Counted from the stretch's first letter, positions 3,481 through 56,625 are shown. The stretch: DNA of 64,000 bases from Candidatus Termititenax aidoneus (GCA_003864455.1 BGZN01000004.1:3125-67124), one strand, 5' to 3'. Program-made: numbers and translations. The notes: generated by a model from the letters alone, not told the origin.

Positions 3481-3482
3481 AA

Positions 3483-3511: not shown

Positions 3512-3539
3512 TCCGCGCATCAAATTCACGAGGTGTTTT

Positions 3540-3923: not shown

Positions 3924-3931
3924 AAAAATCC

Positions 3932-19101: not shown

Positions 19102-20210
19102 TGACTACACAAACCGTAAAATTAGGCGAGGTGTGCGAGATAAACAGAGCGTCAATCGGTAAGGATTACGCTTTTGATAGCATTGAATACCTTGATACTT
19201 CCTCGGTAACGAGCGGCACTTTTTCTGAAACTGAACATTTGAATTTGGCTGACGCACCAAGCAGAGCAAAACGCATTGTCCAAAACAACGACATTGTGAT
19301 TTCAACAGTTCGTCCAAATTTAAGGCATTTCGGCATTATTCAAAACGCCAAACCCAATATGGTTGTTTCAACAGGTTTTGCTGTTTTAACAATTGACGAA
19401 AGCAAAGCAGATTACAGTTATATTTATTATCTCCTTACAAAAGACGACATAGTAGATTATTTATCAGCAGTCGCCGACCAAGCAGTTAGCACATATCCCG
19501 CATTCAATCCCTCTGTCTTGGTAAACCTTGACCTCTCCCTTCCTCCTCTCCCAGAGCAGCAGCGCGTAGCGGGGATTTTGGGCAGTTTGGACGAAAAAAT
19601 CGAAAACAACCGCACCCTCGTCCGCACCACCGAAGCCCTCGCCCGCACCATCTTCAAAAAACACATCGCCGCAAATGAGGAAAACAAGGGGTGGGAAACG
19701 GTAAAATTAGGTGATGTTTGCGAAGTTTTTATCGGTGGAGATGCTCATAAATATGACATAGTAAAGCAATCTGATAAAACTCATAACGTACCAGTATTTT
19801 CCAATGGCATTGTCAATGAAGGACTTTACGGTTATACAAAAAACGCAGAAGTAAAGGCGGGTTCGGTGACAGTCAGTGCCAGAGGAACTGTTGGTTTTAT
19901 AAAGCTACGAGATACTGATTTTGTTCCTATTGTCCGTTTGATTGCGGTTATTCCAAAAGAAGACGATGTTAGCGGCTATTTTCTTGAAGCAGTTTTACAA
20001 AAAGAAACAATTAACGCAAGTGGGTCAAGCCAACAACAAATAACGGCACCAATGATTAAAAACCTTAGAATCAAACTCCCTCCCGCCGCCGTCTTGCAAT
20101 CGTTCGATGCCGTCGTAGAGCCATTGTTTGCCGAAATCGGCTTTCTCACCCGCGAAAACCAAACCCTCGCCGCCACCCGCGACAAACTTTTAAGGAAACT
20201 AATTAAATGA
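19101..20210 (+). CDS. hsdS: type I restriction-modification system specificity subunit
   Basis: Two target-recognition domains separated by conserved central (LPPLPEQQRVAGILGSLDEKI) and C-terminal (LPPAAVLQSF...LFAEIGFLTRENQTLAATRDKLLRKLIK) repeats. Start overlaps the hsdM stop. Confidence 0.85.
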   Translation: MTTQTVKLGEVCEINRASIGKDYAFDSIEYLDTSSVTSGTFSETEHLNLADAPSRAKRIVQNNDIVISTVRPNLRHFGIIQNAKPNMVVSTGFAVLTIDESKADYSYIYYLLTKDDIVDYLSAVADQAVSTYPAFNPSVLVNLDLSLPPLPEQQRVAGILGSLDEKIENNRTLVRTTEALARTIFKKHIAANEENKGWETVKLGDVCEVFIGGDAHKYDIVKQSDKTHNVPVFSNGIVNEGLYGYTKNAEVKAGSVTVSARGTVGFIKLRDTDFVPIVRLIAVIPKEDDVSGYFLEAVLQKETINASGSSQQQITAPMIKNLRIKLPPAAVLQSFDAVVEPLFAEIGFLTRENQTLAATRDKLLRKLIK

Positions 20211-22363: not shown

Positions 22364-22365
22364 CT

Positions 22366-25300
22366 ATGAATACAATCTTAAACGAAGACCAAATAGAACA
22401 AATGACGCTGGAGATTTTCGGCGAATTGGGCTGGACTGTAAAGCACGGCGCACAAATCAGCCGCGATGCCGACCTTTACGCTCCACTGCCGGATGGTGCG
22501 ACCACTTCCGCCGAGCGTGATTTTGGCGATGTGGTGCTGCGTGGTCGCTTGGAGCAAAAAATCCGCGAAATCAACCCGTGGCTGCCGAGCGAAAAGTTGG
22601 ACGAGGTGTTGCGCAAAATCACCCGCACACACGGCGCAAACGACATTGACAACAACCGCCAGTTTCACCACCTTTTGACCGAAGGTGTGGACACCGAATA
22701 CCGCGACGGCGGCGAAGTAAAAACCCGCAAAGTGTTTTTTGTGGATTTTCAACAACCCGAAAACAACGACTTTCTCGCTGTCAACCAACTGACCGTGATT
22801 CAGGACGGCGTCAACAAACGCCCCGACATTGTGCTGTTTGTCAACGGCTTGCCCCTCGGTGTAATTGAACTCAAAAACGCCGCCGATGCCACCGCCGACC
22901 TTTCCGCCGCTTACAACCAAATCCAAACTTACAGGGCAAAAATCTCAAATCTGTTCCGTTTCAACGAACTCTGCGTGATTTCCGACGGACTTGACGCAAA
23001 AATCGGCACTTTTTCCGCCCCCGAAAACCGCTTTACCGCTTGGAAAACCATTAACGGCGAAGAAATACAGCGCAGCGTGCAGATTGACACGCTGACACGC
23101 GGAGTGTTTGAAAAATCGCGTGTTTTGGACATTATCAAAAACTTCATCGTCTTTGAACGCGACGACACCAACTACATCAAAAAACTTGCCGCCTATCATC
23201 AGTATTGGGTGGTGAATAAAGCGCTAGCGACGACCACGCAGGCAATCGCAGGCGACCATCGCGCCGGTGTCGTCTGGCATACGCAAGGCAGCGGCAAGTC
23301 GCTTTCTATGGTGTTTTATGCCGGTAAGCTGATTGCGACGAGCGAACTGCACAACCCGACCCTCGTCATCGTTACCGACCGCAACGACCTCGACGGGCAA
23401 CTTTACAGCACTTTTCATAACTGTGCCGATTTGCTCCGTCAAACGCCCGTGCAAGCCACGAGCCGTGCCGATTTGAAGGACAAACTCAACCGCGAAGCCG
23501 GCGGAGTGATTTTTACTACCATTCAAAAGTTTGAAGAAAGCAACGAAGCAATTTCTGGGCGTTCAAATATCATCGTCATTGCTGACGAGGCGCACCGCTC
23601 GCAATACGGGCTGAAAGCGAGAGTTGGGCGTGACGGCGAGGTGGCGTATGGTGCGGCAAAATATATGCGCGACACGCTGCCCAACGCTTCGTATATCGGC
23701 TTTACCGGCACGCCGATTGAACTTGACGACCGCTCCACGCCGGCGGTGTTTGGCGATTATATTGATATTTACGATGTGGCGCGTGCGGTAGAAGACGGCG
23801 CAACAGTGCCGATTTATTACGAATCACGCTTGGTTGATTTGGGATTCGACGATGAGACGAAAAAGTGGATGGACGAAGAAGTTGACGCGCTTTTTGAAGA
23901 TGTGGAAATGAGTAAGAGCGAGCAACTGAAAGCCGAATTTGCCCAGAAAGAAGCCATTGTCGGCAACCGCGAGCGCGTGAAGTTGATAGCCCGTGACATT
24001 GTGGAGCATTTTGAAAAACGCGAGGAAGTTTTCGCCGGCAAGGGAATGATTGTGGCAATGAGCCGTCAAATTGCGGCGTCGCTTTATGAGAAAATTATCG
24101 CCCTGCGTCCCGACTGGCACAGTGACGAGGTAACTTCCGGCGCACTCAAATGCGTTATCACCGGCGCGTCGAGCGACCCGGCGAATTTGCAAAAACATAT
24201 CCGCAGCAAACCCGACCGCGTGATTGTGGAGAAACGCTTCAAAGACCCGAAAAGCGACCTGAAACTCGTGATAGTGTGCGATATGTGGCTGACCGGTTTT
24301 GATGTGCCGCCGCTTCACACGATGTATCTTGATAAACCGCTGAAAATGCACAATTTGATGCAGGCAATTGCCCGCGTGAACCGCGTTTATCCCGACAAAG
24401 TCGGCGGGCTGGTGGTGGATTATCTCGGCGTGGCGGGAGCGCTGCGCGATGCGATGGCGGTTTATGCTAAATCCGGCGGAACTGGGACGCAAACGGTTGA
24501 TGTTGAGGCGGCAGTGGTGGAAATGAACCGCCGCGTGGAAGTGGTGCGCGATTTGTTCCACGGCTTTGATTATGCGGCGTTTTTCACCGGCTCGGCTGGG
24601 AAAAAATTAGAAATAATGCTGGACGCCGAAGAGTTTATCTTGGGTAAAGTGGAAGACGGCGAAGCGCGCGTCTGAAACGCGAAGTTCACGGACTCTACAA
24701 GGCATTTTCGCTCGCAATGCCGCAACCCGACGCACTCGCAATTCGTGAAGAAGTGGCATTTTTCCAAGCAGTGAAAGCCCGCCTGACCAAAGCAGGTGAA
24801 ACCGGAAAATTAGACAAGGACTACAAAATACAGTTGCAACAGATTGTGGACAAAGCGATTCAACCGCTCGGCATTGTGGACGTGCTTGAAGCGGCGGGGG
24901 TTGAAAAACGCGAACTGCCAATGCTCTCAGAAGAGTTTTTGGCGGAAATCCGCAATTATAAGCGCAAAAGTTTGGCAGTCAGAGCATTGGAAAAACTGCT
25001 TGCTGACCAAATCCGCGCCGGGTTTGCTCACAACGCCATCAAGAGCGAACAATTCAGCGAACTGATTAAAAAGGCATTAGACCGCTACAAAAACGGCACT
25101 ATCGAAGCGGCGCAAATCATTGAGGAGTTGATAGACATTGCCCGCAAATTGAAGGCAAACATAGAAAATCGCCCCGCCGATATGACCGATGACGAAATCG
25201 CCTTTTACGATGCCCTCGCCGACAACGGCTCCGCCCGCGAAGTCCTCGGCGATGAACAACTCCGCGAAATCGCCCGCTATCTCGTGGAAAAAGTCCGCAA

Positions 25301-35697: not shown

Positions 35698-37983
35698 ATG
35701 AGTATACAAACTATAAATAATAACGGAGTCGACTCTGGGGTTTTTGTCAAACAGCAGACCGGAAGAAGGGTTTCGGGAGAAGAGCGCAGGCTTAATGATG
35801 CTCTGTCCAGAATAAATCTAGACAGGGGCAACGATAATATTTATGGAGGATTTAATATCAGTAATGAAGAAATGCAGGCGGCGATTAGGCAAGACAGGGA
35901 GAATACGAGCGCCAATGTAGCCACTGTTTTTAAGAAACTTAACGAGACAGATGCGAGAATACTTTTCAATAGTTTTGACAGCGAGACTCAGGCACAATTG
36001 ATGAGCCATCTTTATGGAAGCAGAGGCAACGAAAATTTTACAAATATGATAAATAGCGAGCTGGACAATCCACAATCCAAACTTAATACCACCGTTTTAA
36101 ACGGTGAGCAAACCGGTGCTATTGCCGCCAGAGCTCTGACCAAAGGTTTGTTGGTTGCCGCCACTGGCCTCTTCGCCTCCGGCTCTACAGCCGAGACCGC
36201 TCAAAACCGTTTGACCAACTTATTGACAGGAGAGCATTCCGGAGTATTTCAAACGGCAATGCGTCAAGTGTATCAAAAATCTGAGCCCGGCAATGGTTTC
36301 ATTTCAAACTCTTCTAACAACGCCAGGGACGAGATCGAAAGATTTTTAAAGAAAACGGATAATCCAGAGCTGGCCGTTTTTAAAGCGGAGTTTACGCACA
36401 GCGGGATTACCAGCAGCGGCGCAGTCGTGCGCGCAGACAAGAACGCAGACGGCAAATATGATCTTAATGAATTGAAGAGTATGAATTCTGAACAAATCCT
36501 GCGTTTGAGTTGTACGGATGAACATTTTTTAGACAACATAGAAATACAAGGACCCAACGGCCCCTTAACGGGAGAGGCCAAAATCGACGCGCTGAAAAAT
36601 ATTTTCACGGAAATTGCGGCTAAAGAAAGAATGGACGGCGTGGCAATAGCTGTTTTTGTGGGAGCTACTTTGGCTACATTGACCGCTGGATTAGCGTCAG
36701 GCGTGGTAGCCACTGTGCTTGCGGTGGAAGGAACAGCTATGGCCACTCTTACCACAGGCGGCGTCATGACTGGCCGGCCAGCGCAGGCTTTGGAAAATAT
36801 CGCCAAGGAACAAATTGCTTCCGGCAATCCCCAGCAAATCCAAAGTTTTTTAGAAAGGTCAGACGCCTTTGGCAGATTGGGAGAAGACCGGACGAACAAC
36901 ATCATCGATAGTTTGGCTAACCTTCCGGACACCAAAATTGAAGCATTTTATACAGCGGTGGAAAATTTGCCGCCGGAACAACGCGCTAATATCTACGCAA
37001 GGATAGCCAAGGCTTTGCCCGACATGCAGCAAGGAAGGTATATAAATAATCCTAACAGCAGCAGAGGAGAACAAATAGAAAATAGGCGTTCAAACCCTAA
37101 CGGAGCGGCACGGCTTGTCAGGCTAAATCCAGAGAACAAATTTCAAGAGCTAAAGAGAATAATGGACACTGGAACCACAATTGAGCTAGCAAGTTACCTT
37201 GAAAAAAATCCGCCTACAAAAGCCCAAATCGCCCGCCTTACTCCGGACGATAAAGCTAAATTAGTCAATGCGGCCGAGGGATTGCAGAGTTTTGGTTCTC
37301 CTGCAGGAGATACAATAATTGCCTTAATGAGAGAAACACCAGACATGCAGTCTGAGATGCTTGCTGCTGTTCTAAATATGGATACTGCTACCAAAGAGCA
37401 GATAGTTACTACAACGCCGTCGCCCAAGAGCGAGACAATTGTTAGTGAACTGATTATTGAAGAAGAAGGTGGATTAACGAAAACCACCGATCAAGAGTCG
37501 GTTTTAAATTTATTCACCACAAACCAAAATGGAAACATCGAAGATGATAATTCAGCGCCAACAAATACAATTGAAGAAAACCAACAGCCCCCACCAGTCT
37601 CAGCAAACATAGCACGAAATGAACAAGCCGCTTCAAGCAGAAATTACCAAGTTTCTACTGTAACTTATCAAGATAACCCAAAATCCTCTGAGACGCAGTT
37701 TATTCCCAGGACTTACGGAATAACGCCACCATCTAATGGCAATGGAATTGAATATCTTAACAATGGCCAACGGATAATGACTGTGGGGAACGATACATTT
37801 GAGTTTGACAGCACATTCCAAGACAATAAAATAAAACTTGGTGGTCGGGAATATACTGTTCAAGGATCAAACCCAGTACATTTTAGAGACAATAATGGCA
37901 ACACTCACTATCTTGGCTGGGACGCTGCGACTAAAAGTTGGACTTATAGAAAAGAAGAAGGAGTGAACCTCAACGCCGCTTAA
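35698..37983 (+). CDS. large hypothetical protein (761 aa) with no signal peptide, a polar Asn/Ser/Thr-rich N-terminus and a central hydrophobic segment
   Basis: ORF with a strong ribosome-binding site; central hydrophobic stretch GVAIAVFVGATLATLTAGLASGVVATVLAVEGTAMATLTTGGVMTG (nt about 36637-36775); no recognizable catalytic motif. Confidence 0.5.
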   Translation: MSIQTINNNGVDSGVFVKQQTGRRVSGEERRLNDALSRINLDRGNDNIYGGFNISNEEMQAAIRQDRENTSANVATVFKKLNETDARILFNSFDSETQAQLMSHLYGSRGNENFTNMINSELDNPQSKLNTTVLNGEQTGAIAARALTKGLLVAATGLFASGSTAETAQNRLTNLLTGEHSGVFQTAMRQVYQKSEPGNGFISNSSNNARDEIERFLKKTDNPELAVFKAEFTHSGITSSGAVVRADKNADGKYDLNELKSMNSEQILRLSCTDEHFLDNIEIQGPNGPLTGEAKIDALKNIFTEIAAKERMDGVAIAVFVGATLATLTAGLASGVVATVLAVEGTAMATLTTGGVMTGRPAQALENIAKEQIASGNPQQIQSFLERSDAFGRLGEDRTNNIIDSLANLPDTKIEAFYTAVENLPPEQRANIYARIAKALPDMQQGRYINNPNSSRGEQIENRRSNPNGAARLVRLNPENKFQELKRIMDTGTTIELASYLEKNPPTKAQIARLTPDDKAKLVNAAEGLQSFGSPAGDTIIALMRETPDMQSEMLAAVLNMDTATKEQIVTTTPSPKSETIVSELIIEEEGGLTKTTDQESVLNLFTTNQNGNIEDDNSAPTNTIEENQQPPPVSANIARNEQAASSRNYQVSTVTYQDNPKSSETQFIPRTYGITPPSNGNGIEYLNNGQRIMTVGNDTFEFDSTFQDNKIKLGGREYTVQGSNPVHFRDNNGNTHYLGWDAATKSWTYRKEEGVNLNAA

Positions 37984-40292: not shown

Positions 40293-41453
40293 GTGAATTT
40301 GTGGCCAAAAATTAGCGGATTTCTTTGTTTGCTGTCCGCGTTTGCCCTGGCCTCATTTCCGGTTGATCTTTTGGACAAAACTTCCGGTCTAGCCGTCCTG
40401 AGCTGCGGCGGAGCAGGAGCGGCGCGTACCGACGGCGTCGGCGCGGCTTACTGGAATCCGGCGGGGTTGGCTTTTTCCGGCAAAAGCGGCTTTGACCTGA
40501 CCTATTATCAAAAACTGGGTTTCGTGAATCACTCTTCACTGGACGCCGTGCTGCTGCTCGGCGGCGACATCTTGCCGCTCGGTTTCAATCTGGTGCAGGA
40601 GGGCATTAACAGTATTCCGCGCACCAGCTCGGCCGGCGGACTGCCGGTGGAAGAAGGCTCTTTCGCCGACGAGTACCGCTTTATTAATTTTTCTACAGCT
40701 TTTCGCCTCGATCACGGACTGTACGGCGGCCTCAATTACAAAATCATTTCTCATACTATCGACAAATACCGCGCCGAAGGCTTTGCTGTCGATCTGGGTT
40801 TAATCCAGATCATGAGCCAAAACTTGACGCTGGGCGCGACTTTTCGCAATCTTTTTTCCGCGCTGGACTGGACTACCGGTTTGCAGGAATATCTGGCGCG
40901 CAAATTGACCGCCGGAGTTGCCTATCATCTGCCGCTGGCCGATTTTGAAAATTATTTGTACGCCGATCTCGACATATACAGCGAAGAAGAGCGCGGCTGG
41001 GCGCTGGGCGCGGAGTCCTGGCTGCTGAAAAATGTTTTCTGTCTGCGCGGCGGCTACAACAGCGGCCAAGAATTCACGCTCGGCACCGGGCTGCGTTACA
41101 ATGATTTTCACTGCGATCTAGCTCTGCTTTTCAATCCGGACAAAGTGGAAATAGACAATTCTTTTTTGTTCGGGCTGGGCTTTGATTTTCAACTGCCGCG
41201 CAATTCCGCGGCGCGCGCCGTCAGCGACGCCAGTTTTCAGCCGGAAATCAGCGTATTTCGTAAACGCATTATTGTCAGCGATTTGCAGCCGGAGAAAATT
41301 CAAGAAATCGCCGTGCTTGATCCTGCTGACAATGTGCTTTCCCTGCCGGTCCGCAAAACTATTGAAATTCCGGCGCCGGCCACCGGCAATTACACGCTTT
41401 TTTTCCAACTCAAAAATGAAAAAATCATTAAACAAACCGTCCTGGTTGAGTAA
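40293..41453 (+). CDS. outer-membrane beta-barrel protein, UPF0164/PorV-like family (putative)
   Basis: Signal peptide; GAGAARTDGVGAAYWNPAGLA resembles the conserved N-terminal motif of PorV/UPF0164 OMPs; amphipathic beta-strands. Confidence 0.35.
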   Translation: MNLWPKISGFLCLLSAFALASFPVDLLDKTSGLAVLSCGGAGAARTDGVGAAYWNPAGLAFSGKSGFDLTYYQKLGFVNHSSLDAVLLLGGDILPLGFNLVQEGINSIPRTSSAGGLPVEEGSFADEYRFINFSTAFRLDHGLYGGLNYKIISHTIDKYRAEGFAVDLGLIQIMSQNLTLGATFRNLFSALDWTTGLQEYLARKLTAGVAYHLPLADFENYLYADLDIYSEEERGWALGAESWLLKNVFCLRGGYNSGQEFTLGTGLRYNDFHCDLALLFNPDKVEIDNSFLFGLGFDFQLPRNSAARAVSDASFQPEISVFRKRIIVSDLQPEKIQEIAVLDPADNVLSLPVRKTIEIPAPATGNYTLFFQLKNEKIIKQTVLVE

Positions 41454-47000: not shown

Positions 47001-47960
47001 ATGAGCAAAAAACAACGCGGCGCGCTTTTGCTGGCGGCTCTTTGCCTGGTCTGGTGGCTGCTAGATAGTTTTGTGTTTTGGAAAGAAGTCGCCGAACAGC
47101 GCTATGTGCTGCACACTTTGGCGGAAATCAGGGTTCTTTGCCACAGCAGACAGCAGGGACGCCAGGCTATAAACACGGCTTTTGCTAAAATGAAAGAACT
47201 GGAAGAAAAATTTAATTATTTTGACCCCGGCAGCGAATTATCCCGGATTAATCAAAACGCTTTTCGGCAGGAAATGCCGCTCAGCGGGGACATGAACGCG
47301 ATACTGACCCTGGCGCTGGCCGGCAGCGAGATTTCTGGCGGCACTTTTGACATCACAATCACGCCGATCTCGCGCCTGTATGGATTTGGCACGGAGCAAA
47401 AACAAAAACCAGACCAGCGGAATATTCAAAATCAAATGCAGGGCGTCGGCTGGCAAAAGGTGCGGCTCGACAGCCAAAAACAAACCGTGCGCCTGCTGCA
47501 TAGCCGCACGCAGCTCGATCTAGGCGGCATTGCCAAAGGCTACGCGGTAGACCAAGCTGTCGAAACTCTGCAGCGGCACGGCATTCGCCATGCGCTGGTC
47601 AATGCCGGCGGCAATATTTTCGCGCTGGGGCAAAAACGCGGCAAGCCCTGGCGAATAGCGATACGCGATCCGCGCGCCGTCGAGAAAACTTTGCAGGTTT
47701 TTGAATTGAGCGACGAAGCCTGCGCGACTTCCGGCGATTACGAGCAATATTTTGTAGCGGACGGACAGAGATACTCGCATATTTTTAACCCGCAAACCGG
47801 ACGTCCGGCCAATCTCGAAAATGAACTGGCCAGCGTTACAGTTATCGCCGACAGCGCAGCCCGGGCAGACCTGCTCTCCACCGCCTGTTTTGTGCTGGGC
47901 GTGGAAAAATCCAGCATTTTTCCTGAAAAGAAATTTTTTTATAAGGCGAATGCCGACTAA
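47001..47960 (+). CDS. apbE: FAD:protein FMN transferase
   Basis: LDLGGIAKGYAVD is the ApbE motif. N-terminal lipoprotein-like signal. Confidence 0.8.
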   Translation: MSKKQRGALLLAALCLVWWLLDSFVFWKEVAEQRYVLHTLAEIRVLCHSRQQGRQAINTAFAKMKELEEKFNYFDPGSELSRINQNAFRQEMPLSGDMNAILTLALAGSEISGGTFDITITPISRLYGFGTEQKQKPDQRNIQNQMQGVGWQKVRLDSQKQTVRLLHSRTQLDLGGIAKGYAVDQAVETLQRHGIRHALVNAGGNIFALGQKRGKPWRIAIRDPRAVEKTLQVFELSDEACATSGDYEQYFVADGQRYSHIFNPQTGRPANLENELASVTVIADSAARADLLSTACFVLGVEKSSIFPEKKFFYKANAD

Positions 47961-50554
47961 CTTGCGGCCAGCGCTTTTAACTGCTCTTCCACAATTTTAA
48001 ATTTTTCGGCGTAATCTTTTTCTTTTTCTTTTTCTTTTTCGATAACTTCCGGCGGCGCTTTTTCGATAAAACTTTTATTGGCCAATTTATTTTTGATGCG
48101 GTTAATTTCGGTTTGGTATTTATTTTTTTCTTTTTCCAAGCGGGCAATTTCGGCCTGCAAGTCAATGAGCTTGTCCAACGGCACAAAAATCTCCGCGCCG
48201 TTGATCACCGCATGCGAGGCATTACGCGGCTTGGCAGCCAGTCTAGCCGCCAGATCGATTTTTTCCACGCCGGAGAGCTGCTGAATATACGGCTTGGCTT
48301 CGGTCAAGGCCTCGGCCACAGCCGGATCGCCGCAGAGAATAATCAAATCCGCTTTTTTCGCCGGCGCGACGTTCATTTCCGCGCGGATATTGCGCACCGC
48401 GCGGATCAGCTCAATAACCACAGCCATTTTTTTCTCGCGCGCCGGATTGAGCAGGGCTTTGTCCGCCTGCGGCCAATTCGCGTTGATCACTTTGCCGGCA
48501 TTGCCAAGCTTAGCCCAGATCTCTTCTGTGATAAAAGGTGTCAGCGGATGCAGCAGGCGCAAAATGCCGTTGAACACGGTCAAAAAAGTTTCTTTATGCA
48601 GCCCCAGTTTGGACATCTCGATATACCAGTCGCAAAATTCATTCCAAACAAAATCATACAAGCCCAGCGCCATGTCGCCGAAATAAAAATTGCGCAGCGC
48701 GGAGTCGGTCTTTTGGATCACCTGCTGATAGCGCGAAAGTATCCATTCGTCAGCCGGTGATTTTTCCGCGCTAAATTTATTGTCCGCCAATTTCAGCAGA
48801 ACAAAACGCGCGACATTCCAAATCTTATTCATGAAATTGCGGCTGGCCAAAACTTTTGACGCCGCCAGCTTGAGGTCCTGTCCGCCGGCCGTCGCCATCG
48901 AAGCCAGCGTAAAGCGCAGTGCATCCGCGCCGTATTCTTTAATCAACTCCACCGGGTCGACAGCGTTGCCGGTGGATTTGCTCATTTTTTTGCCGTGTTC
49001 ATCGCGAATCAAGCCGTGGATCACGACTTTGTGAAACGGCGCTTCTTTTTGAAATTCCAAACCCATAGTAATCATGCGCGAAACCCAAAAAGTGATAATG
49101 TCGTAGCCGGTTACCAGCAGCGCGGTCGGGTAATATTTTTTTAAGTCGGCGGCAGCGTCCGGCCAGCCCAGCGTAGAAAAAGGCCAGAGCGCTGAACTGA
49201 ACCAGGTGTCCAGCACGTCCGCATCTTGAGTTAATTTATCCGAGCCGCATTTGGGGCAGGTCTGCGGATCATCTTTGGCACAAATGATTTCACCGCACTC
49301 GCAGTACCAAACCGGAATGCGGTGTCCCCACCAGATCTGGCGCGAAATGCACCATTCGCGGATATTTTCCATCCAGTCAAAATAAACTTTGCTCCAGCGC
49401 TCAGGATAAAATTTTAGGCGGCCGGAACGCACAGCCTCGACAGCGGGCGCGGCCAGTTTAGGCATATCCACAAACCATTGCGGCGAAAGATACGGCTCGA
49501 TCACATCGTGGCAGCGGTAACAGCGGCTGATTTTATTTTCATAATCCTGCACCGAATCCAGCAGGCCTTTTTCCTCCAGATCGGTCAGCGCCAGCTCGCG
49601 GGCTTTGAAACGATCCAGCCCTTTGTAGCGCAGCGGCACATTTTCGTTAAGCAGTCCCGAAGTGTCCATGATCGCCAGCGCCGGTAATTTATGGCGTTTG
49701 CCGACTTCGTAATCGTTCACATCATGCGCCGGAGTGATCTTGACCACGCCCGTGCCAAATTCGCGGTCGACATATTCATCGGCAATAATCGGGATTTTTT
49801 TGTCGGTCAGCGGCAGCAGCACTTCTTTGCCGATCAGGTCTTGGTAACGTTCGTCCGCAGGATGCACAGCCACGGCCGTGTCGCCGAATAAAGTTTCCGG
49901 CCGCGTCGTCGCCACCACCAAATATTTTTTAGGATTTTCGGCCAGTTGATAACGTAAATGCCAGAGCTTGCCGGCGTTTTCTTCGTATTCCACTTCGACA
50001 TCGGACAACGCCGTATGACAGCGCGGACACCAGTTGATAATGCGCGGGGCTTTGAAAATCAGACCTTTTTTGTACAGTTCGACAAAAACTTCACGCACCG
50101 CGCGCGAACAGCCTTCGTCCATAGTAAAACGCTCGTGCGCCCAATCGCAGGATGCGCCAAGCAAACGCAGCTGGCTGGTGATCCGGCCGCCGTATTCTTC
50201 TTTCCAGCGCCAGACTTCCTCGATAAATTTTTCACGGCCGAGATCATGACGCGTCCGGCCATCCTGGGCTAATTTTTTCTCCACAACATTTTGCGTGGCA
50301 ATACCGGCGTGGTCGGTGCCGGGCACCCAGAGGACATTGTCGCCCAGCATGCGCCGCCAGCGCACCAAAATATCCGGCAAAGTGTCGTCAAGCGCATGCC
50401 CCATGTGCAAAGCGCCGGTTACATTGGGCGGCGGCATGACAATCGCGAACGGCTCACCGGCGCCTTTGGGCGCAAAATCTCCACTTTTTTCCCAATCCGC
50501 GTAAATTCGCGCTTCGATCTCCGAGGGGTTATAAACTTTTTCCATTTCGGACAT
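47957..50554 (-). CDS. valS: valine--tRNA ligase
   Basis: HIGH region PPNVTGALHMGHA, KMSKS, the editing domain, and the C-terminal coiled coil. Confidence 0.9.
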   Translation of the reverse strand: MSEMEKVYNPSEIEARIYADWEKSGDFAPKGAGEPFAIVMPPPNVTGALHMGHALDDTLPDILVRWRRMLGDNVLWVPGTDHAGIATQNVVEKKLAQDGRTRHDLGREKFIEEVWRWKEEYGGRITSQLRLLGASCDWAHERFTMDEGCSRAVREVFVELYKKGLIFKAPRIINWCPRCHTALSDVEVEYEENAGKLWHLRYQLAENPKKYLVVATTRPETLFGDTAVAVHPADERYQDLIGKEVLLPLTDKKIPIIADEYVDREFGTGVVKITPAHDVNDYEVGKRHKLPALAIMDTSGLLNENVPLRYKGLDRFKARELALTDLEEKGLLDSVQDYENKISRCYRCHDVIEPYLSPQWFVDMPKLAAPAVEAVRSGRLKFYPERWSKVYFDWMENIREWCISRQIWWGHRIPVWYCECGEIICAKDDPQTCPKCGSDKLTQDADVLDTWFSSALWPFSTLGWPDAAADLKKYYPTALLVTGYDIITFWVSRMITMGLEFQKEAPFHKVVIHGLIRDEHGKKMSKSTGNAVDPVELIKEYGADALRFTLASMATAGGQDLKLAASKVLASRNFMNKIWNVARFVLLKLADNKFSAEKSPADEWILSRYQQVIQKTDSALRNFYFGDMALGLYDFVWNEFCDWYIEMSKLGLHKETFLTVFNGILRLLHPLTPFITEEIWAKLGNAGKVINANWPQADKALLNPAREKKMAVVIELIRAVRNIRAEMNVAPAKKADLIILCGDPAVAEALTEAKPYIQQLSGVEKIDLAARLAAKPRNASHAVINGAEIFVPLDKLIDLQAEIARLEKEKNKYQTEINRIKNKLANKSFIEKAPPEVIEKEKEKEKDYAEKFKIVEEQLKALAAS

Positions 50555-50768
50555 AAGGCCACAATAATAGCATAAAATAGCCGCTCTAAGCATTTATAAA
50601 CTTGTCACTTCGGCCGCTAAAGCGGCCTTGTGGCTCTCACTTAACTTCGCGGCGGCGCCGCTTGTTAAGTTCGAGTGCGCGGAAGAGGACGACTGCGCCG
50701 GCTACCGCCGGCTTGTGGCCCTAATTTTTTTCTCTATACTTTTTACGTATAGTCATTTCAAACATATT

Positions 50769-50853
50769 AAATTACTTGGTGCGCGGAAGAGGACTCGAAC
50801 CTCCAAGCCTTGCGGCACAAGATCCTTAGTCTTGCGCGTATACCAATTCCGCC
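50769..50853 (-). tRNA. tRNA-Leu (anticodon TAG)
   Basis: Reverse complement GCGCGGATGGCGGAATTGGTATACGCGCAAGACTAAGGATCTTG...GGTTCGAGTCCTCTTCCGCGCACCA; long variable arm. Confidence 0.85.
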
Positions 50854-50911
50854 ATCCGCGCGTCAAAGAGCAAACAACTATACAACAAGAGCAAAATTTT
50901 TTCTAGAAAAA

Positions 50912-51262
50912 CTATTTTTCCCGACTGGTCTGGCTCATAAGCCGCAGCCAGAGCAGTTGCAGGTTTGGCCGTATTTTACGGAATACGCTCAGCAATTGTT
51001 TTTCCACACCGGCGCTTTCGCTAGGCACAGTTTTTACTCCGCGCTCCTGCAGAAAATAATTAAGCGGCACGCCGTGAAATTCCGCCAGTCTGTACAAAAT
51101 ATCCAGGCCAGGATTATTGTTTTTCGCATTTTCCAAACGCACATAATTGGCGTAATTTATATTAACCAGCCCCGTCAAAACATCCACAGTCAAGCCTTTT
51201 TTCAAACGCAGCTCTCTCAGCTTTTTGCCGATCTGCATTTTCAAATGTTGAAAATCCTGCAT
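50912..51262 (-). CDS. XRE-family helix-turn-helix transcriptional regulator
   Basis: IGKKLRELRLKKGLTVDVLTGLVNINYANYVRLE is an HTH_3 domain. Transcribed divergently from the repeat-protein genes. Confidence 0.75.
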   Translation of the reverse strand: MQDFQHLKMQIGKKLRELRLKKGLTVDVLTGLVNINYANYVRLENAKNNNPGLDILYRLAEFHGVPLNYFLQERGVKTVPSESAGVEKQLLSVFRKIRPNLQLLWLRLMSQTSREK

Positions 51263-51437
51263 GTTTTTACCGCCTCGTTTTATTTATTGTATTAATTAAA
51301 TCCTCCAATTAAGTATCTTTTACAGTACTTGCTTTTAAGATATTAATATGCTAAACTAGGGACTAGGTGTTAAAGCGGTATTTAGCTGACTGTTCAAACT
51401 TTACAAGTTCAACAAGGCAAAATAAAAAAAAGGGGGT

Positions 51438-52358
51438 ATGTATATGGCAAGTAATTACACAGACAGTTATGACGGCATAGCGAGCCGGGAGCCGTTGTCG
51501 GCGGAGAAAGTAACAGCGGCGCTGAACAAAATGGAAAAAGTGGCCAATAAAGTATCCAAGGCGGAATGGGAAGCAAATGCTGGTAGTGAGCAGAGCAGCG
51601 ACAGCAAATATCCTACCTGCGCGGCGGTCAATAACGCGGTCGAGGCAGTCAGCGCTAAGTTGAGCGACGATGCGCAGGCGCTTAATATTAAGATAGATGA
51701 AATGAACTTTGCTGCGGAGAAAGCAATAAACAAGATCCAGACAACCGAGACATGGGAGGACAATAAAAGCAGTAATGAAAAATACCCCAGCTGCAAGGTG
51801 GTCAATGCGGCAATCACGGAAAAGTTCGAGGGCGCGGAAAAAATAGTTAATAGAGTGGATTACACGCTATGGGATAGCAACACGGATGAGGATGCAAAAT
51901 ACCCCACCTGCGGGGCGGTTACTCATGCGATCAATCTCGCAATTGAGGCGATTGATGCTATGATCGCGGATGTCAATGAGAGGATCGCGACTGTTGTCCA
52001 CGACGATATTCCGCTTCTCAATGAGGAGATCGCGACTGTCAATGAGAGGATCGCGACTGTTGTCGACGACGATATTCTGCTTCTCAATGAGAGGCTCACT
52101 GCTGTTCAGGGCGAGCTTACGGCGCTGTCCGACGCGGCGGAAAGAACAGCCAATAAGGTCATTAAAGAAAATTGGTCAAGCAATAAGACCAATGCTACAA
52201 AATACCCCAGCTGCGCGGCTGTGCAGTTGGCCATAGAAACGGCCGCCATTAATACCGTTAATAATGTTAAAACAACTTCAATATCCAGCTCTTCAACGGA
52301 TGACAAATTCCCGACGGCCAAGGCTGTCCATGACTATTTCTGGAGTGTATTTCATTAG
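51438..52358 (+). CDS. repeat protein with a recurring KYP(S/T)C-x-AV module and a coiled-coil segment
   Basis: Modules at ...SDSKYPTCAAVNNAVEAV, ...NEKYPSCKVVNAAITE, ...DAKYPTCGAVTHAINLA, ...ATKYPSCAAVQLAIETA, ...DDKFPTAKAVHDYF. Internal roughly 45-bp DNA repeats (51982-52026 and 52048-52092) encode the hexadecapeptide repeats IATVV(H/D)DDI(P/L)LLNE(E/R). Confidence 0.5.
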   Translation: MYMASNYTDSYDGIASREPLSAEKVTAALNKMEKVANKVSKAEWEANAGSEQSSDSKYPTCAAVNNAVEAVSAKLSDDAQALNIKIDEMNFAAEKAINKIQTTETWEDNKSSNEKYPSCKVVNAAITEKFEGAEKIVNRVDYTLWDSNTDEDAKYPTCGAVTHAINLAIEAIDAMIADVNERIATVVHDDIPLLNEEIATVNERIATVVDDDILLLNERLTAVQGELTALSDAAERTANKVIKENWSSNKTNATKYPSCAAVQLAIETAAINTVNNVKTTSISSSSTDDKFPTAKAVHDYFWSVFH

Positions 52359-52376
52359 TTTTAAAAGGGGTGTTAT

Positions 52377-54023
52377 ATGGCTAGTGATTACGAGGGTAGT
52401 TATACCGGCATAGAACAAGGTAAAGTAGCCTACGCGCGGGACTTAACGAACGCGCTGAACAAAATGGAAAGAGTGGCCAATAAAGTAACCACCGCGGAGG
52501 AATGGGACATCTATGCCAATAAAATCAGTGAGGATAAATACCCCGCCTGCAATATTGTCAGCGCCGCGGGCGCGGCGGTAAAGACGTCTATGGATACCCA
52601 GCTTTCGGAATTATCCAGCCAGGCGACCGCGGTAGATGACGCTACGGAAAAGACAGCCAATAAAGTAACTTCAGGCGACTGGGCAGACAATAAGGAAGAT
52701 GATAACAAATATCCGAGCTGCAAGGCGGTTGATCAGGCGCTCACGGGAACAACCGGCTTCGAGCAAAGTATGAATATAATAAAATACGAATACACAGAGG
52801 AGAAAAACAGCTGGGGAAGAAACACGCGGAATGATTTAAAATATCCCAGCTGCAAGGTTGTGAATACCGTGGTCGGGGAGAATATCATCAGCGCCAAGAC
52901 CGCCGAGGTCGAGGGTAGTAACAATTTGGTAAATGGTATTAATACTTCGGTAGATGACAGCAACGCTTCGGTAGATGACAGCAATGCTTCGGTAGACGAT
53001 ATTAACGCTTCAGTCGATAATATTAACGCTTCGGTAGACAAAATCAGTGAGGATATTGAGGAATTGGACGGCGACACGGAAAAAATTGCCAATAAAGTCA
53101 TGGAAGGAACGCTAAAGGATTATGAGGACAGTGATGACAAATATCCGAGCTGTCCGGTTGTTGATGAGGGTCTAACCGCGGTTTTTAGCCAGCTAGACTT
53201 TGGCAAAATCACATCAGTTTCCGCGGATTCGACAGACATTTTGCTGCCAACGGCCGGAGCGGTGTATAGATTTGTACAGTCTATAATAGGCGTCTCGTAC
53301 GGCTCTATAGTTTCCAACGTTCATGTGGATAACAACGCATTTCATACAGTGATGGGTTACTATACTGGGAATAGTTATCAGCAGGATGCGGGCTATAATT
53401 GGTACGAGGCCGTGCAGTATTGCGCTTATCTGACGGTGCAGGAAAACGATGTGTCCCAGGCGGTCAAGGATTATATAATACAATATTATCTTGTGGACAG
53501 ATCCAGCCTTAACATAACCAATTACGATCAGACCATTGGAGATAAATGCAGCAATTATCTGAAATATGCTCTGATCACACCCGGATGTTATCGTCTGCCG
53601 ACCAGCACGGAGTGGACAGGCGTTTACAACCAAATTCTCAAGTACAGGTCTGGCCTGCACACTGAGACGTATTCAAATGATCCTTCAGTTGTTTTCAGTT
53701 CCACGAGCGATCATTATTGTCTTGAATGGTGCATAGATGCTAATAGTAGTTCCGATAAGATGCTGGGCGGCAAAGCTTTTAAGAATGGGAATTATCAGGC
53801 TGAACGCATTGTGCGCGGTGGTGTGGCCGGCAAATCCGAAGACAGAGGCCTCGACCCCACCCGCTGGTATTTTCGGCTGGCAGATTATATCTACCGCGCG
53901 GCGTCGTACTCCAGGGCAGGCCAATTAACACTAATTGGCAAAGGTAGCGGTGAAATTGAATACACTCACCACTACATACCGTACTCCGCGCACGGCATGC
54001 GTTTAGTCCAAACAGTAATCTAA
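52377..54023 (+). CDS. repeat protein (same KYPxC-AV modules) with in-frame 21-bp tandem repeats and a C-terminal FGE-sulfatase (SUMF1/DUF323)-like domain
   Basis: N-terminus is paralogous to the preceding gene (...ANKV...KYPACNIV, KYPSCKAVDQAL, KYPSCKVVNTVV, KYPSCPVVDEGL). The C-terminal NWYEAVQYCAYLT...CYRLPTSTEWTG...RIVRGG resembles the W.DA.AYC.WL / YRLPTEAEWE / R.LRGG blocks of FGE-sulfatase domains. Confidence 0.5.
   Translation: MASDYEGSYTGIEQGKVAYARDLTNALNKMERVANKVTTAEEWDIYANKISEDKYPACNIVSAAGAAVKTSMDTQLSELSSQATAVDDATEKTANKVTSGDWADNKEDDNKYPSCKAVDQALTGTTGFEQSMNIIKYEYTEEKNSWGRNTRNDLKYPSCKVVNTVVGENIISAKTAEVEGSNNLVNGINTSVDDSNASVDDSNASVDDINASVDNINASVDKISEDIEELDGDTEKIANKVMEGTLKDYEDSDDKYPSCPVVDEGLTAVFSQLDFGKITSVSADSTDILLPTAGAVYRFVQSIIGVSYGSIVSNVHVDNNAFHTVMGYYTGNSYQQDAGYNWYEAVQYCAYLTVQENDVSQAVKDYIIQYYLVDRSSLNITNYDQTIGDKCSNYLKYALITPGCYRLPTSTEWTGVYNQILKYRSGLHTETYSNDPSVVFSSTSDHYCLEWCIDANSSSDKMLGGKAFKNGNYQAERIVRGGVAGKSEDRGLDPTRWYFRLADYIYRAASYSRAGQLTLIGKGSGEIEYTHHYIPYSAHGMRLVQTVI
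52947..53054 (+). repeat. five 21-bp in-frame tandem repeats encoding VDD(S/I)NAS heptapeptides
   Basis: gtagatgacagcaacgcttcg / gtagatgacagcaatgcttcg / gtagacgatattaacgcttca / gtcgataatattaacgcttcg / gtagacaaaatcagt... Confidence 0.8.
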
Positions 54024-54033: not shown

Positions 54034-54492
54034 TTACTCCACTTTGCCTTTGCGCTTGGGCGTCCAACTGGAGTCCACGTAAACGCCTTTCTTTTGTTCT
54101 TCCAAATTTTGAAAATCCGGCAGGTCAATATTGGACTGCGGCGCAAACTCATGGCGCAAACGCTCCAGACCGCGGACATTTTCGGTCAGCCCTTCGACGT
54201 GCTGATTGATCGCCGTGCCGCCGCGCGACTGGCGGATCTGCGTATAAGCGTCGATCACACCTTTGAGCGCCGCCGAACCCTGGCTGAAAATACCGGCGAT
54301 CAAACCAAAGCCCTTGAGATCAAATTCTTTCAAATCTTTGGCAATTTGCTTGACCGGCGAGGCCTGCTGTATTTCTTGAATATAAGCCACGCGCTCCGCC
54401 GGCGACATGCCGCCTGCCGCGGAGATCGGCGCTGTGCCGCCGCTGCCACCGTAAGCGGGCACGCTGCTTTTGCGTTTTTTCCGTTCGCTCAT
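54034..54492 (-). CDS. hypothetical protein
   Basis: 152-aa ORF; no motif. Confidence 0.3.
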   Translation of the reverse strand: MSERKKRKSSVPAYGGSGGTAPISAAGGMSPAERVAYIQEIQQASPVKQIAKDLKEFDLKGFGLIAGIFSQGSAALKGVIDAYTQIRQSRGGTAINQHVEGLTENVRGLERLRHEFAPQSNIDLPDFQNLEEQKKGVYVDSSWTPKRKGKVE

Positions 54493-54501: not shown

Positions 54502-55329
54502 CTAAATTCGCGTTCTGCGGCCGGCGTTAATGTCTTTGCGCATTTTGCTCAAAATCTTTTTCTTGTAAGCCACGAGTTCGCCCGGACTCATTTTAGATGT
54601 GTCCGCCGAGATCACCGAATGTCCTTGCACAGGCGCGGCGGATTGTCCCAGCACAGTGCCTTTTTGTTGTTTTTCCAGTTCCTCGCTCAAAAGATTAACC
54701 GTTTGAGCGATCTCCGTTTGCTCGGTCATAAAAGTATCTTTGGCCAGCAGCTCGCCGGTCTCCGGAGCATTGAGCACAATCGCCTGACGCAAGGCCTCCT
54801 GCCGTTTCCGTTCGGCTTCCTGCATCTGCGCCAGAGCCAGCGCGCGTTTTTGCGTCTGCAATTCCTCGGCATTGTCTTTTAGCAAATCTTTTAATTCAGA
54901 AACGCTGCTGAGCTTGCGCTCTCCGCCGGCGCGTTTGTGCTCCGGCATCAGCATAGTCAACAAATCCTCTTTTTTGTCATCAGCGTTGCTGTATTTCAGC
55001 AACTCGGCGTAAATCGAACCCTGCATTTTGGCCTCGCGCAAAAGCTTGTCCACATAGCGGCTGATCTGCAGCGGATTGTCCAGACCGACAAAATACCTGA
55101 ATTTCTTTTCGTCAATCGTGCCGTCCAGATAGCCGGTCAGCAAAAAGTTCAAAAGAAAATCATAATACTGTTCCTGCGAACCGCCGCTCAGCAGAAAATC
55201 ATAAAATTCACCGGAATCCATTTCGTAAAAAGGCTTGGCCGGCGGCTCGCCGGGCACTTTGTTTAAGACTTCCCGCAGCTGCACAAAACGCTGCACGCGC
55301 GCCAGAAATTTTTTAATAAAACCCAACAT
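54502..55329 (-). CDS. hypothetical protein
   Basis: 275-aa ORF; Glu/Lys-rich coiled-coil C-terminal half. Confidence 0.35.
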   Translation of the reverse strand: MLGFIKKFLARVQRFVQLREVLNKVPGEPPAKPFYEMDSGEFYDFLLSGGSQEQYYDFLLNFLLTGYLDGTIDEKKFRYFVGLDNPLQISRYVDKLLREAKMQGSIYAELLKYSNADDKKEDLLTMLMPEHKRAGGERKLSSVSELKDLLKDNAEELQTQKRALALAQMQEAERKRQEALRQAIVLNAPETGELLAKDTFMTEQTEIAQTVNLLSEELEKQQKGTVLGQSAAPVQGHSVISADTSKMSPGELVAYKKKILSKMRKDINAGRRTRI

Positions 55330-55332: not shown

Positions 55333-56625
55333 TTATTTCAACACCCGTTTAAAAATTTTCCGCACATTGCGGATCGTGTATTGATAATCAAATAAATCCA
55401 GCAGTTCTTTTTTCGTAATCCACTGCAATACTTCCGGATCACCCGTGATGTTGTCGCGGAAAGAACCGTCCTCGTCCCGCGCTCGCAAAGCATTGCGCTG
55501 CACCAATTTGTAAGCCCGCTCGCGCGTCAGTCCCTTGCCGACCAGAGCCAGTAAAACGCGCTGGGAAAAAATTATGCCGCCGCAGGCGTCCATGTTCCTG
55601 GCCATGCGCCGCGGATAAATCTCCATGCCGGCCAAAACTTTTTGCGCCAGCGAAAACATATAGTCCAGTAAGATACAGCCGTCGCCAAAAATAATTCGCT
55701 CCGCGCCGGAGTGCGAAATATCGCGCTCATGCCAGAGCGCCACATTTTCCAGAGCCGTAACCGCATAGCCGCGCAAAACCCGCGCCAGGCCGGTAATGCG
55801 CTCGCAAATAATCGGGTTGCGCTTGTGCGGCATCGCAGAAGAGCCTTTTTGTCCTTTGCCAAAAGGCTCGGCGGCCTCGGCGGTGTCGGTCTTTTGCAGC
55901 AGGCGGATTTCCACGGCGATTTTTTCCAGCGTCGCGCCAATAACCGCCAGTGTGGTCATAAACTCCGCATGACGGTCGCGCTGCACCACCTGCGTCGCCA
56001 CAGAGCACGGCATCAAATGCAGTTTTTTACAAACATATTTTTCGACAAAGGGATCGATATTGGCATAAGTGCCGACCGCGCCGGATAATTTGCCGACGGA
56101 AATATTTTTCCTGGCCTGCGCCAGACGCTGTTTGTTGCGCCGCATCTCCTCATACCAGAGCAGGAGCTTCAGGCCAAAGGTCGTCGGTTCGGCATGAATG
56201 CCGTGCGTGCGGCCGATCATAATCGTGTCTTTATATTTCAAGGCCTGTTTTTTTAAGACGGCCAGCAAAACGTCTACATCTTTTTCTAAAATTTCCGCCG
56301 ACTGCTTGAGCAGCAGGCAGGCCGCCGTGTCGCCGATGTCCGAGGAAGTCAGTCCCAAATGCACAAAACGCGAGGACGGACCGACATTTTCCGCCACATT
56401 GGTCAAGAAAGCGATGACATCGTGATTAGTTTCTTTTTCGATTTCCTCGATACGTTTAACGTCAAAACGCGCTTTAGCTTTGATGATCTGCAAATCTTTT
56501 TTGGAAATCAAACCTAGTTTTTGATTGGCCTCGCAAGCCGCTAGCTCAATATCCAGCCATTTGCGAAATTTATTTTCCGGCTCCCAAACAGCCTGCATTG
56601 CGGGCAAAGAATAACGGTCGAGCAT
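55333..56625 (-). CDS. purB: adenylosuccinate lyase
   Basis: Fumarate-lyase signature GSSAMPHKRNP and the PurB N- and C-terminal regions. Confidence 0.9.
   Translation of the reverse strand: MLDRYSLPAMQAVWEPENKFRKWLDIELAACEANQKLGLISKKDLQIIKAKARFDVKRIEEIEKETNHDVIAFLTNVAENVGPSSRFVHLGLTSSDIGDTAACLLLKQSAEILEKDVDVLLAVLKKQALKYKDTIMIGRTHGIHAEPTTFGLKLLLWYEEMRRNKQRLAQARKNISVGKLSGAVGTYANIDPFVEKYVCKKLHLMPCSVATQVVQRDRHAEFMTTLAVIGATLEKIAVEIRLLQKTDTAEAAEPFGKGQKGSSAMPHKRNPIICERITGLARVLRGYAVTALENVALWHERDISHSGAERIIFGDGCILLDYMFSLAQKVLAGMEIYPRRMARNMDACGGIIFSQRVLLALVGKGLTRERAYKLVQRNALRARDEDGSFRDNITGDPEVLQWITKKELLDLFDYQYTIRNVRKIFKRVLK

Follow-up and report, generated by a model that had tools for sequence, protein, structure and literature searches.

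A probable XRE-controlled cassette of two fibre proteins derived from phage tail fibres, one with a divergent TvpA-like head, in Candidatus Termititenax aidoneus

TvpA (TDE2269) and its paralogs are the variable proteins of a diversity-generating retroelement (DGR) in Treponema denticola (PDB 2Y3C), where one template repeat serves up to seven dispersed genes of the formylglycine-generating enzyme (FGE) type and orphan targets persist in isolates without the retroelement (PMC4891356). A distal receptor-binding head with a variable C-terminus is also the design of Mtd of Bordetella phage BPP-1 and of C-type-lectin-tipped fibres such as the tail-collar fibre of crAss-like phages (PMC7290462). 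Here we describe a chromosomal locus of Candidatus Termititenax aidoneus with proteins of this design, at positions 50,769 to 54,023 of a 64,000-nucleotide stretch (GCA_003864455.1 BGZN01000004.1:3125-67124, hereafter the window). The locus contains three genes, for a divergently oriented XRE regulator and for two paralogous proteins, P1 (100% identical to NO1_0434, NCBI) and P2 (100% identical to NO1_0435); coordinates are collected in Table 1. The three genes probably form an XRE-controlled cassette of two fibres derived from phage tail fibres, in which a non-enzymatic, TvpA-like lectin head on P2 would act as the binding tip.

The sequence-only reading of this locus had placed the C-terminus of P2 in the FGE/SUMF1 fold from short conserved blocks, which are indeed present (WYEAVQYCAYLT, CYRLPTSTEW and RIVRGG). 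The profile check that it proposed was negative for P2 itself, since PF03781 matched neither the full protein nor its last 247 aa even at E<=10. The relationship was supported instead by homologs. Only two close homologs of P2 were found among 5.8 billion proteins, P0002 (38% identical, E 3.3e-73) and P0003 (E 3e-52), both from one termite-gut metagenome, and P0002 matched PF03781 with 26.7 bits (cut-off 23.3). A three-head profile of the P2 type retrieved Ca. T. persephonae proteins annotated as sulfatase-modifying factor (E 7e-14 to 9e-12), which have a P2-like N-terminus and modules plus a canonical FGE domain; the canonical head of locus L006 scored 128 bits against PF03781. Comparison of the P2-type and canonical head profiles by hhalign gave 99.9% probability (E 3.8e-31). 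The FGE/SUMF1-like assignment was thus upheld by homologs and by profile-profile comparison, and not by direct search. In the central YIWG...YGWY...NAYGLYDVLGNVWEW segment the P2 head is ~24 aa shorter than the canonical heads, and its tail is ~25 aa longer. When the canonical heads were compared with all PDB sequences the best match was TvpA (2Y3C), over the whole domain (E 4.3e-34, 121 bits), followed by pFGE (82 bits) and then by FGEs, PorK/GldK, PvdO and EgtB. The three-sequence P2-type profile also put TvpA first, weakly (E 0.33).

The catalytic pair of FGE (Cys336/Cys341 in the human enzyme) lies just after the RGGS motif. No Cys is present in P2 at aa 483-548, where this pair would lie, and an enzymatic role of the P2 head is therefore very unlikely to judge from its sequence; lacking the catalytic cysteines, the head may rather be a ligand-binding tip. 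Together with TvpA as the best structural match, this agrees with the non-enzymatic FGE-fold binding module suggested previously. The labels of the paralogs in NCBI and UniRef ('sulfatase-modifying factor protein') and their strong matches to PF03781 would favour P2 being a formylglycine-generating (sulfatase-modifying) enzyme or a related FGE-fold oxidase, but the region of the missing catalytic pair is the most variable of the family, the closest structural relative is a non-enzymatic binding protein and not an FGE, the domain is fused to a fibre stalk and no sulfatase genes lie nearby. We find this explanation hardly credible.

P1 and P2 are collinear paralogs, the full length of P1 aligning with the first 304 residues of P2 with 35% identity (E 1e-38). 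P1 begins with the anchor (aa 1-37) and has four KYPxC modules, a 22-aa helical unit present twice and, at its end, a KFPTAKAV module and the aromatic tail DYFWSVFH. Each protein contains four copies of the motif KYP[STA]C, compared with 2.6e-4 occurrences expected from composition, and its eight Cys are the only Cys of both stalks, at matching positions in P1 and P2 (59/58, 117/115, 156/159 and 257/259). The fifth module of P1 is of the Ala type and closes the protein (DDKFPTAKAVHDYF), and its counterpart in P2 (DILLPTAGAVYRFV) stands ahead of the head. Tandem Repeats Finder revealed one array in each of the two genes. These results confirm two earlier proposals, that P1 and P2 are paralogous KYPxC repeat proteins and that their genes contain internal DNA tandem repeats. 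Signs of a homotrimer are indirect, namely the heptad repeats, the helix predicted for aa 159-242 and a weak similarity (E 0.11) to the trimeric coiled coil of Lpp, Lpp-like heptads being all that a phmmer search of P2 against the PDB retrieved. The stalk is probably a trimeric coiled coil in which the modules would form knots, and the conserved Cys of the modules may lie on the fibre axis.

The headless paralogs of the P1 type (window 52330-52355; P0005 and P0006; L012 8198-8710; L009) all end soon after the last module with an aromatic tail (DYFWSVFH, NCFWNIFNSL, DAFWNRFNLL and AIWRRFRMHNLF) and always lie upstream of an FGE-headed paralog. This suggests that they are a distinct conserved subfamily, and the headless fibre is perhaps the partner of the headed one.

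No Pfam, PHROG or NCBIfam model covers the stalk, in agreement with the sequence-only reading, which could not name the family, and searches of the PDB with the anchor/module profile and with P0021 found nothing, no solved structure containing the module. A profile of the N-terminus and first modules was searched with full HMMER against 1.84 billion cluster representatives, of which 417 matched at E<=1e-3 and 80 at E<=1e-10. Many of the 417 are proteins of 500-3000 aa with 5-9 tandem copies of a unit of ~35-45 aa, K-E-x3-NKVT-x-I-x3-STD-x-QYPSAKAVY. Neither Pfam nor PHROG holds a curated model of the NKVT-x-I-x3-STD-x-QYPSAKAVY unit, and cluster look-ups gave no names for the long multi-module proteins. 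In the viral contigs of IMG/VR, 176 copies of the QYPSAKAVY-type unit were confirmed. The unit-bearing gene of viral contig L155 is a tail fibre gene (phrog_12796, 4e-23; phrog_1396, 2e-19) located directly after those of a baseplate wedge subunit (phrog_6, 1e-56) and a baseplate protein, and that of viral contig L161 follows a tail protein gene (phrog_372, 6e-70). Viral open reading frames (ORFs) carry one to three copies of the unit, and beyond these there is usually a distal domain of >60 residues, an order like that of the last module and the head of P2. Since the unit is phage-borne, the modules of P1 and P2 appear to be a Cys-bearing variant, with KYPxC for QYPSA, of a phage tail-fibre connector repeat. 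P1 and P2 themselves had no significant tail match in PHROG; it was the module profile that matched tail fibres in viral contigs. When viral sequences were scanned with the canonical head, 19 FGE-type genes came up; the stalk module was present in none of them, and by a crude motif test none had an adjacent DGR.

The N-terminus defines the family. Its consensus over all members is MAxxYxxxYxGIxxGxPLSAEKxTxALNxMEKVANKV, and M1, Y5, Y9, G11, I12, T24, A26, L27, N28, E31 and V33-K36 were invariant or nearly so in the 9-10 members aligned. A scan for this anchor in one genome per species (185,579 species) gave 26 loci in three genomes only, those of Ca. T. persephonae and of the termite-gut metagenome-assembled genomes (MAGs) Gx481_bin108 and Gx485_bin185, and the named anchor-bearing matches of the exhaustive search were all from Termititenax or Margulisbacteria MAGs. 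By local ORF clustering the family has at least 51 genes in 29 loci. P1 has two paralogs in its own genome (NO1_0150 and NO1_1992) and relatives in Ca. T. persephonae and Margulisbacteria MAGs. The only recurrent neighbour is a divergent XRE gene, found in nearly every locus where upstream DNA exists, and the other flanks are housekeeping genes. The order XRE, headless, FGE-headed recurs in T. persephonae, where in L012 the XRE gene is followed by genes for proteins of 170, 403 and 399 aa (L007, L010, L013 and L006 are similar). The heads are interchangeable within the family: a TvpA-like lectin, a tail-fibre/tail-collar head (matching phrog_8469, 1800, 5795 and 8763 at 1e-17 to 1e-9), an ALK/LTK-type glycine-rich head, or none.

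The regulator gene of our locus scored above the Pfam cut-offs for HTH_19 (33.5 bits, cut-off 30.2), HTH_3 (27.7, cut-off 23) and HTH_31 (27.5, cut-off 27) and matched PHROG families of transcriptional regulators/repressors (E 7e-10), in agreement with the divergent XRE regulator read from the sequence before. Homologous XRE genes are located divergently upstream of family members in ~17 other loci. The XRE-fibre intergenic regions span 98-184 bp in all 17 cases compared, and nearly all of them end in AAGGGGG(T/G)AT..ATG. The ribosome-binding site of P2 is AAAGGGG, 8 nt upstream. No convincing operator palindrome was found at the locus, and a scan of the locus for promoters, operators and terminators performed no better than on shuffled sequence.

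Further observations were made on loci of the family. Ca. T. persephonae contig BGZO01000004 (L012) has a second cluster of family genes (1586-4640, - strand), one of them for a fibre whose head is of the ALK/LTK glycine-rich type (2006-3262; PF12810, 55 bits). Directly after this fibre an ORF of 139 aa (L012 1586-2005) encodes no more of an FGE head than its C-terminal half, with YGFRLARIV at the end, and may be a split or decaying head. In two genomes a set of genes for an outer-membrane factor, an HlyD-like adaptor and a MacB-type ABC exporter adjoins a family member (L011 1797-5964; L026 ~1390-2664), which could reflect synteny by descent or be a hint of an export route. Some contigs of MAG Gx481_bin108 (L017, L028 and L029) carry two XRE-fibre cassettes 2-5 kb apart with housekeeping genes or a tRNA between them, in L028 in opposite orientation. 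The T. persephonae head of L006 (1652-3193) has two more Asn/Tyr/Ser-rich insertions (YGYNNNISYSYSNNYNNHNSEY and HHYYTIYYNNGGSYTNYSSYTG) besides its N/Y-rich C-terminal tail, which look like additional hypervariable loops.

Because the head is TvpA-like, P2 could be an active DGR target, with a reverse transcriptase (RT) and a template elsewhere in the genome rewriting its last ~60 codons by adenine-specific mutagenesis; dispersed FGE-type targets and orphans that outlast the RT have their precedent in T. denticola (PMC4891356). The part of P2 that corresponds to a DGR variable region diverges most among homologs, and it is here that P2 has its ~25-aa insertion. In the T. persephonae paralogs the stretch between RGG and GFRLAR consists of an invariant scaffold (F-A-S-S-Y-R, P, R) with interspersed codons that vary. 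At codon positions 1-2 of this stretch 56% of the sites were variable compared with 24% upstream (p 4e-6); no excess was seen at position 3. The tail codons of the relatives are almost all NNY: in L006 and L011 the third base is C or T in 90-93% of them and never A, and the tail of P0002 has 82% C at this base compared with 29% in the rest of the gene. In the relatives this signature is suggestive. On the other hand, NNY bias is absent from the P2 tail (third-base C+T is ~60% there and 57% in the rest of the gene), which contains AAA, GAA, CAA and AGA codons in addition to the insertion. No template-like repeat was detected in the 64-kb window (blastn with word size 7; A-tolerant regex scan) or in the other family loci fetched, and no RT either: the window has no ORF of >=200 aa with YxDD, and none of RT character was found in the 29 loci. 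Adenine-containing variable sites were not enriched in the T. persephonae tails compared with upstream (p 0.29). The third-position drift in these tails is that of the rest of the genes, indicating that they have not recently been overwritten from one template. It is thus quite improbable that P2 is being diversified by an active DGR; the family's canonical heads may be, or may once have been, acted on by one.

Variation of the P2 gene between populations was seen in contig L002, where the P2 ortholog P0003 lies beside an ortholog of the downstream ORF 54034-54492 (~84% identical over 38 comparable residues); the fibre ORF runs off the start of this contig. P0003 is ~45% identical to P2, lacks ~105 aa of the stalk, comprising the heptad coiled coil and the fourth KYPSC module, and has a completely different tail. 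These differences show that the P2 gene is fast-evolving with a variable number of modules. The comparison of strains for repeat-number variation, advised at the outset, thus excluded a core gene with a fixed repeat count. Alternatively, the cassette could be in decay and at present without function, its head a pseudogenising orphan left on a relic fibre. This would account for the large indels among P2-type heads (the WC..GGK..RGG segment is missing from P0010, P0003 and P0002 are of different lengths, and P2 has its insertion) and for the erosion of the DGR-like codon signature in P2. However, the ORFs of P1 and P2 are intact and have strong ribosome-binding sites, a second population retains the gene at the same site beside the same neighbour, GC content is that of the genome, and the scaffold blocks W.EA.QYCAY.T, DV.QAVKD and GDKC.NYLKYALITP.C.RLPTS.EW are invariant in P2, P0002 and P0003, which are ~45-50% identical. 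Decay is therefore highly doubtful as an explanation of the locus.

In the mechanism that we propose, the XRE protein would decide, presumably as a repressor, whether the cassette is expressed. The fibres would then assemble on a common base through the conserved 37-aa N-terminal peptide, which would dock or anchor all fibres of the family. The stalk would be mostly alpha-helical and is broken by modules of ~40-57 aa of the form ..NKVT..(W..NK)..D.KYPxC.AV, and tandem duplication alters its length. P1 ends after its last module, and P2 continues into a TvpA-like head devoid of the FGE catalytic cysteines, which would bind a ligand. The cassettes of the family keep the anchor and exchange the head (lectin, tail-collar, Gly-rich or none), each behind its own XRE gene. 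Finally, the variable heads would bind surface ligands on other cells, which for an obligate ectosymbiont would mean the surface of its partner. From their sequences, P1, P2 and their relatives are plausible attachment or targeting fibres. The variable fibre or receptor-binding protein of the sequence-only reading is in this way supported by the homology of the head to TvpA-type heads, by the occurrence of the module in phage tail fibres, by the tail-fibre/tail-collar heads of other members and by the shortened stalk of the P2 ortholog.

Several results weigh against fibres of this origin and function. In direct scans P1 and P2 matched no Pfam, PHROG or NCBIfam family and gave spurious coiled-coil matches only, and a tblastn search of 50,697 phage genomes (INPHARED) with P1 and a canonical multi-module protein found no match, which for P1 is unfavourable. 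AlphaFold models had low confidence: full-length P2 (alignment of 13 sequences) had a mean predicted local distance difference test (pLDDT) score of 49, with moderate confidence only at aa 159-242 and aa 340-420 (70-88), the head alone (alignment of three sequences) had a pLDDT of 32, and Foldseek found no match in the PDB. The lectin fold of the P2 head and the trimeric fibre are accordingly readings of sequence and not of a structure. Given its loss and gain of segments, the P2 head may also bind differently from the canonical heads or be decaying. No phage, prophage or tail-particle structural genes flank P1 and P2 or lie near any of the 29 family loci, around which integrases and secretion genes were likewise not found, and the anchor was detected in none of 2.9 million viral contigs (IMG/VR). 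Neither P1 nor P2 has a signal peptide, a lipobox or a transmembrane segment.

Since these export signals are lacking, a particle encoded elsewhere and an unrecognised display route would both fit. According to the first of these, P1 and P2 would be the receptor-binding fibres of a tailocin, an extracellular contractile injection system, a particle like a gene transfer agent or a resident phage encoded elsewhere in the genome, the N-terminus plugging into its baseplate and the cassettes being alternative specificities; the architecture would be the same, with a particle rather than the cell surface as the base. Cytoplasmic assembly of such a particle fits the lack of a signal peptide, the stalk module and several heads are of phage tail-fibre type, the regulators are of phage repressor type, and if dozens of different fibres all plugged into a common baseplate socket, an N-terminal peptide that is invariant among them would be required. 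However, none of the 29 loci adjoins sheath, tube, baseplate or capsid genes, the anchor is absent from the viral contigs, the genes are located at 10-20 scattered sites with a regulator each, unlike known tail-particle loci, and we know of no phage-tail-like particle in this lineage. Fibres of a particle are possible, although somewhat unlikely, and we prefer the cassette of tail-fibre-derived binding fibres described above.

The locus is flanked by valS (47957-50593, - strand) and a tRNA-Leu gene on one side and by the purB operon on the other. The two uncharacterised ORFs of this operon had no family match in Pfam, PHROGs or NCBIfam, and the wider flanks are housekeeping genes (ispF, apbE, a SpoU methylase gene, a NAD(P)HX dehydratase gene, queH, prmC and prfA). 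The anticodon of the tRNA-Leu, initially given as TAG, is AAG, as its loop (CUAAGGA) shows. In bacteria A34 is uncommon and normally limited to tRNA-Arg(ACG). Most descriptions of a bacterial tRNALeu(IAG) come from Lactobacillales (PMC13249217; PMC8266599). The A34 of this tRNA is presumably deaminated to inosine. In place of the REP-like palindrome reported beside the tRNA we found just a few short, imperfect inverted repeats. A tRNA-targeted island or prophage remnant was considered and rejected, since there is no integrase ORF at the cassette, the cassette is located 5' of the tRNA gene and not at its 3' end, its GC content (0.45-0.48) is like that of the whole window (0.48), and any tRNA is found in only 3 of 26 related loci. 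The tRNA, whose proximity was once taken as one of the clues to a variable protein, is thus an incidental neighbour.

Table 1. Features of the XRE-P1-P2 locus and its immediate neighbours (window coordinates)
Feature	Position	Strand	Remarks
tRNA-Leu, anticodon AAG	50777-50861	-	Anticodon loop CUAAGGA
XRE/Cro-C1-type helix-turn-helix regulator, 116 aa	50912-51262	-	Divergent from the fibre genes
Divergent intergenic control region	51263-51443	.	Strong GGGGG ribosome-binding site ahead of P1
P1 (NO1_0434), headless fibre paralog, 304 aa from MASNY	51444-52358	+	ATG at 51438 gives 306 aa
66-nt x2 tandem repeat in P1 (ERIATVV.DDI.LLNE units)	51962-52091	+	Tandem Repeats Finder, 93% matches, score 232
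P2 (NO1_0435), 548 aa	52377-54023	+	P1-like anchor and stalk, then C-terminal head
N-terminal 37-aa family anchor of P2 (MASDYEGSYTGI...LTNALNKMERVANKV)	52377-52487	+	Near-invariant columns
P2 stalk, four KYPxC modules (aa 54-58, 111-115, 155-159, 255-259)	52536-53153	+	Motif positions
Predicted long alpha-helix/coiled coil of P2, aa 159-242	52851-53102	+	AlphaFold2 pLDDT ~60-83; includes the heptad repeat
21-nt x4.5 tandem repeat in P2, encoding SNASVDD heptads	52945-53038	+	Tandem Repeats Finder
Last, canonical-type module of P2 (SADSTDILLPTAGAVYRFVQSI)	53223-53288	+	Directly before the head; aligns with QLPTAKAVYSF and KYPTAKAVYDLL of homologs
C-terminal head of P2, divergent TvpA-like FGE-type domain (putative C-type-lectin fold), aa 305-548	53289-54020	+	Profile homology
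Counterpart in P2 of a DGR variable region (RIVRGG to GMRL interval, aa 483-539)	53823-53993	+	Homolog alignments
Two family-less ORFs of the purB operon	54034-54492 (152 aa) and 54502-55329 (275 aa)	-	Downstream of purB, same strand
purB	55333-56625	-	Operon with two uncharacterised ORFs

Elsewhere in the window a type I restriction-modification operon was found at 17614-24675 (+ strand), with hsdM (17614-19101), hsdS (19101-20210) and hsdR (22366-24675). A gene for a 718-aa AAA_13 ATPase (20207-22363) is inserted between hsdS and hsdR, an arrangement known for anticodon nucleases of the PrrC/RloC type. Three ORFs of the window had no Pfam match at E<=1e-5, those at 10701-12404 (- strand, 567 aa), 35698-37983 (+ strand, 761 aa) and 40293-41453 (+ strand, 386 aa).

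Candidatus Termititenax is an obligately attached ectosymbiont of Treponema (ectosymbiotic spirochetes) on termite-gut protists. To our knowledge, nothing is known of its attachment mechanism. Since Termititenax is obligately attached, a role of P1 and P2 in attachment to the partner or in target recognition is the most economical functional guess, and only a guess. A literature search found nothing on the module motif or on DGRs in Termititenax or Margulisbacteria, the genus description paper being outside the search. The closest solved relative of the heads of L006, L007 and L010-L012 (2Y3C) comes from Treponema, the organism to which Termititenax is attached, and it is conceivable that the lectin head was acquired from the partner lineage or its phages. 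A bolder version would have the family consist of domesticated, XRE-gated adhesins derived from phage fibres that attach Termititenax to Treponema, with TvpA-type heads from spirochetes or their phages that a retroelement diversifies now or did so recently, and with the Cys forming metal or disulfide knots on the fibre axis; to this whole we give little credence.

The locus and its more than 50 relatives are the kind of gene set that a search for attachment genes of Termititenax would target: lineage-restricted, expanded and fast-evolving, with interchangeable heads and private regulators. If the preferred reading is true, parts of phage tail fibres and a DGR-type head were recruited into chromosomal cassettes outside any phage, and a widespread fibre repeat (417 representatives, 176 viral copies), for which there is no Pfam or PHROG model or solved structure, is brought to light. 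Were the partner of the anchor to be found, it would reveal either a new route by which proteins lacking a signal peptide are displayed on the surface or, in Margulisbacteria, a tail-like particle that has so far escaped notice.

Among described systems, TvpA and its paralogs are of the same domain subfamily as the canonical heads of the family, and they share with it dispersed paralogs within a genome, a hypervariable stretch between RGG and GFR at the C-terminus and a non-enzymatic character. TvpA, however, has a signal sequence, is a lipoprotein and carries no fibre stalk (PMC4891356), whereas P2 has no signal peptide and carries its head on a stalk of ~300 aa of the tail-fibre type with a family-specific N-terminus. 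Unlike TvpA, P2 lacks the ~24 aa of the central segment and the NNY signature, and no RT or template was found in the window or fetched loci. Genes of the Mtd type lie in phage tail modules with an adjacent DGR, whereas P1 and P2 are encoded in the chromosome between tRNA-Leu/valS and the purB operon, with the XRE gene as their sole partner. The QYPSAKAVY repeat has in common with the modules of P1 and P2 the core ANKV...(D/T)xKYPx(C/A)xAV, its spacing and its place just before the head; the Termititenax modules differ from it in the invariant Cys for Ala, an inserted W..NK segment and long heptad coiled coils. A further likeness, in concept, may be to exosporium fibres of the BclA type and other fibre families anchored by their N-terminus, which have a short N-terminal targeting peptide, a variable repeat stalk and a C-terminal head, occur as paralogs and lack a signal peptide. 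The BclA fibres differ in having no sequence relationship to P1 and P2 and a collagen-like stalk, and they are assembled inside the sporulating mother cell; Margulisbacteria are not known to sporulate. In kind, then, a receptor-binding protein resembling a tail fibre and tipped with a C-type-lectin fold is already known from Mtd and TvpA. What sets the present locus apart is a TvpA-type head joined to a fibre stalk with no retroelement detected, and the arrangement in phage-free chromosomal cassettes with their own regulator, present in dozens of copies in one small lineage and distinguished by a private anchor and a Cys-type module.

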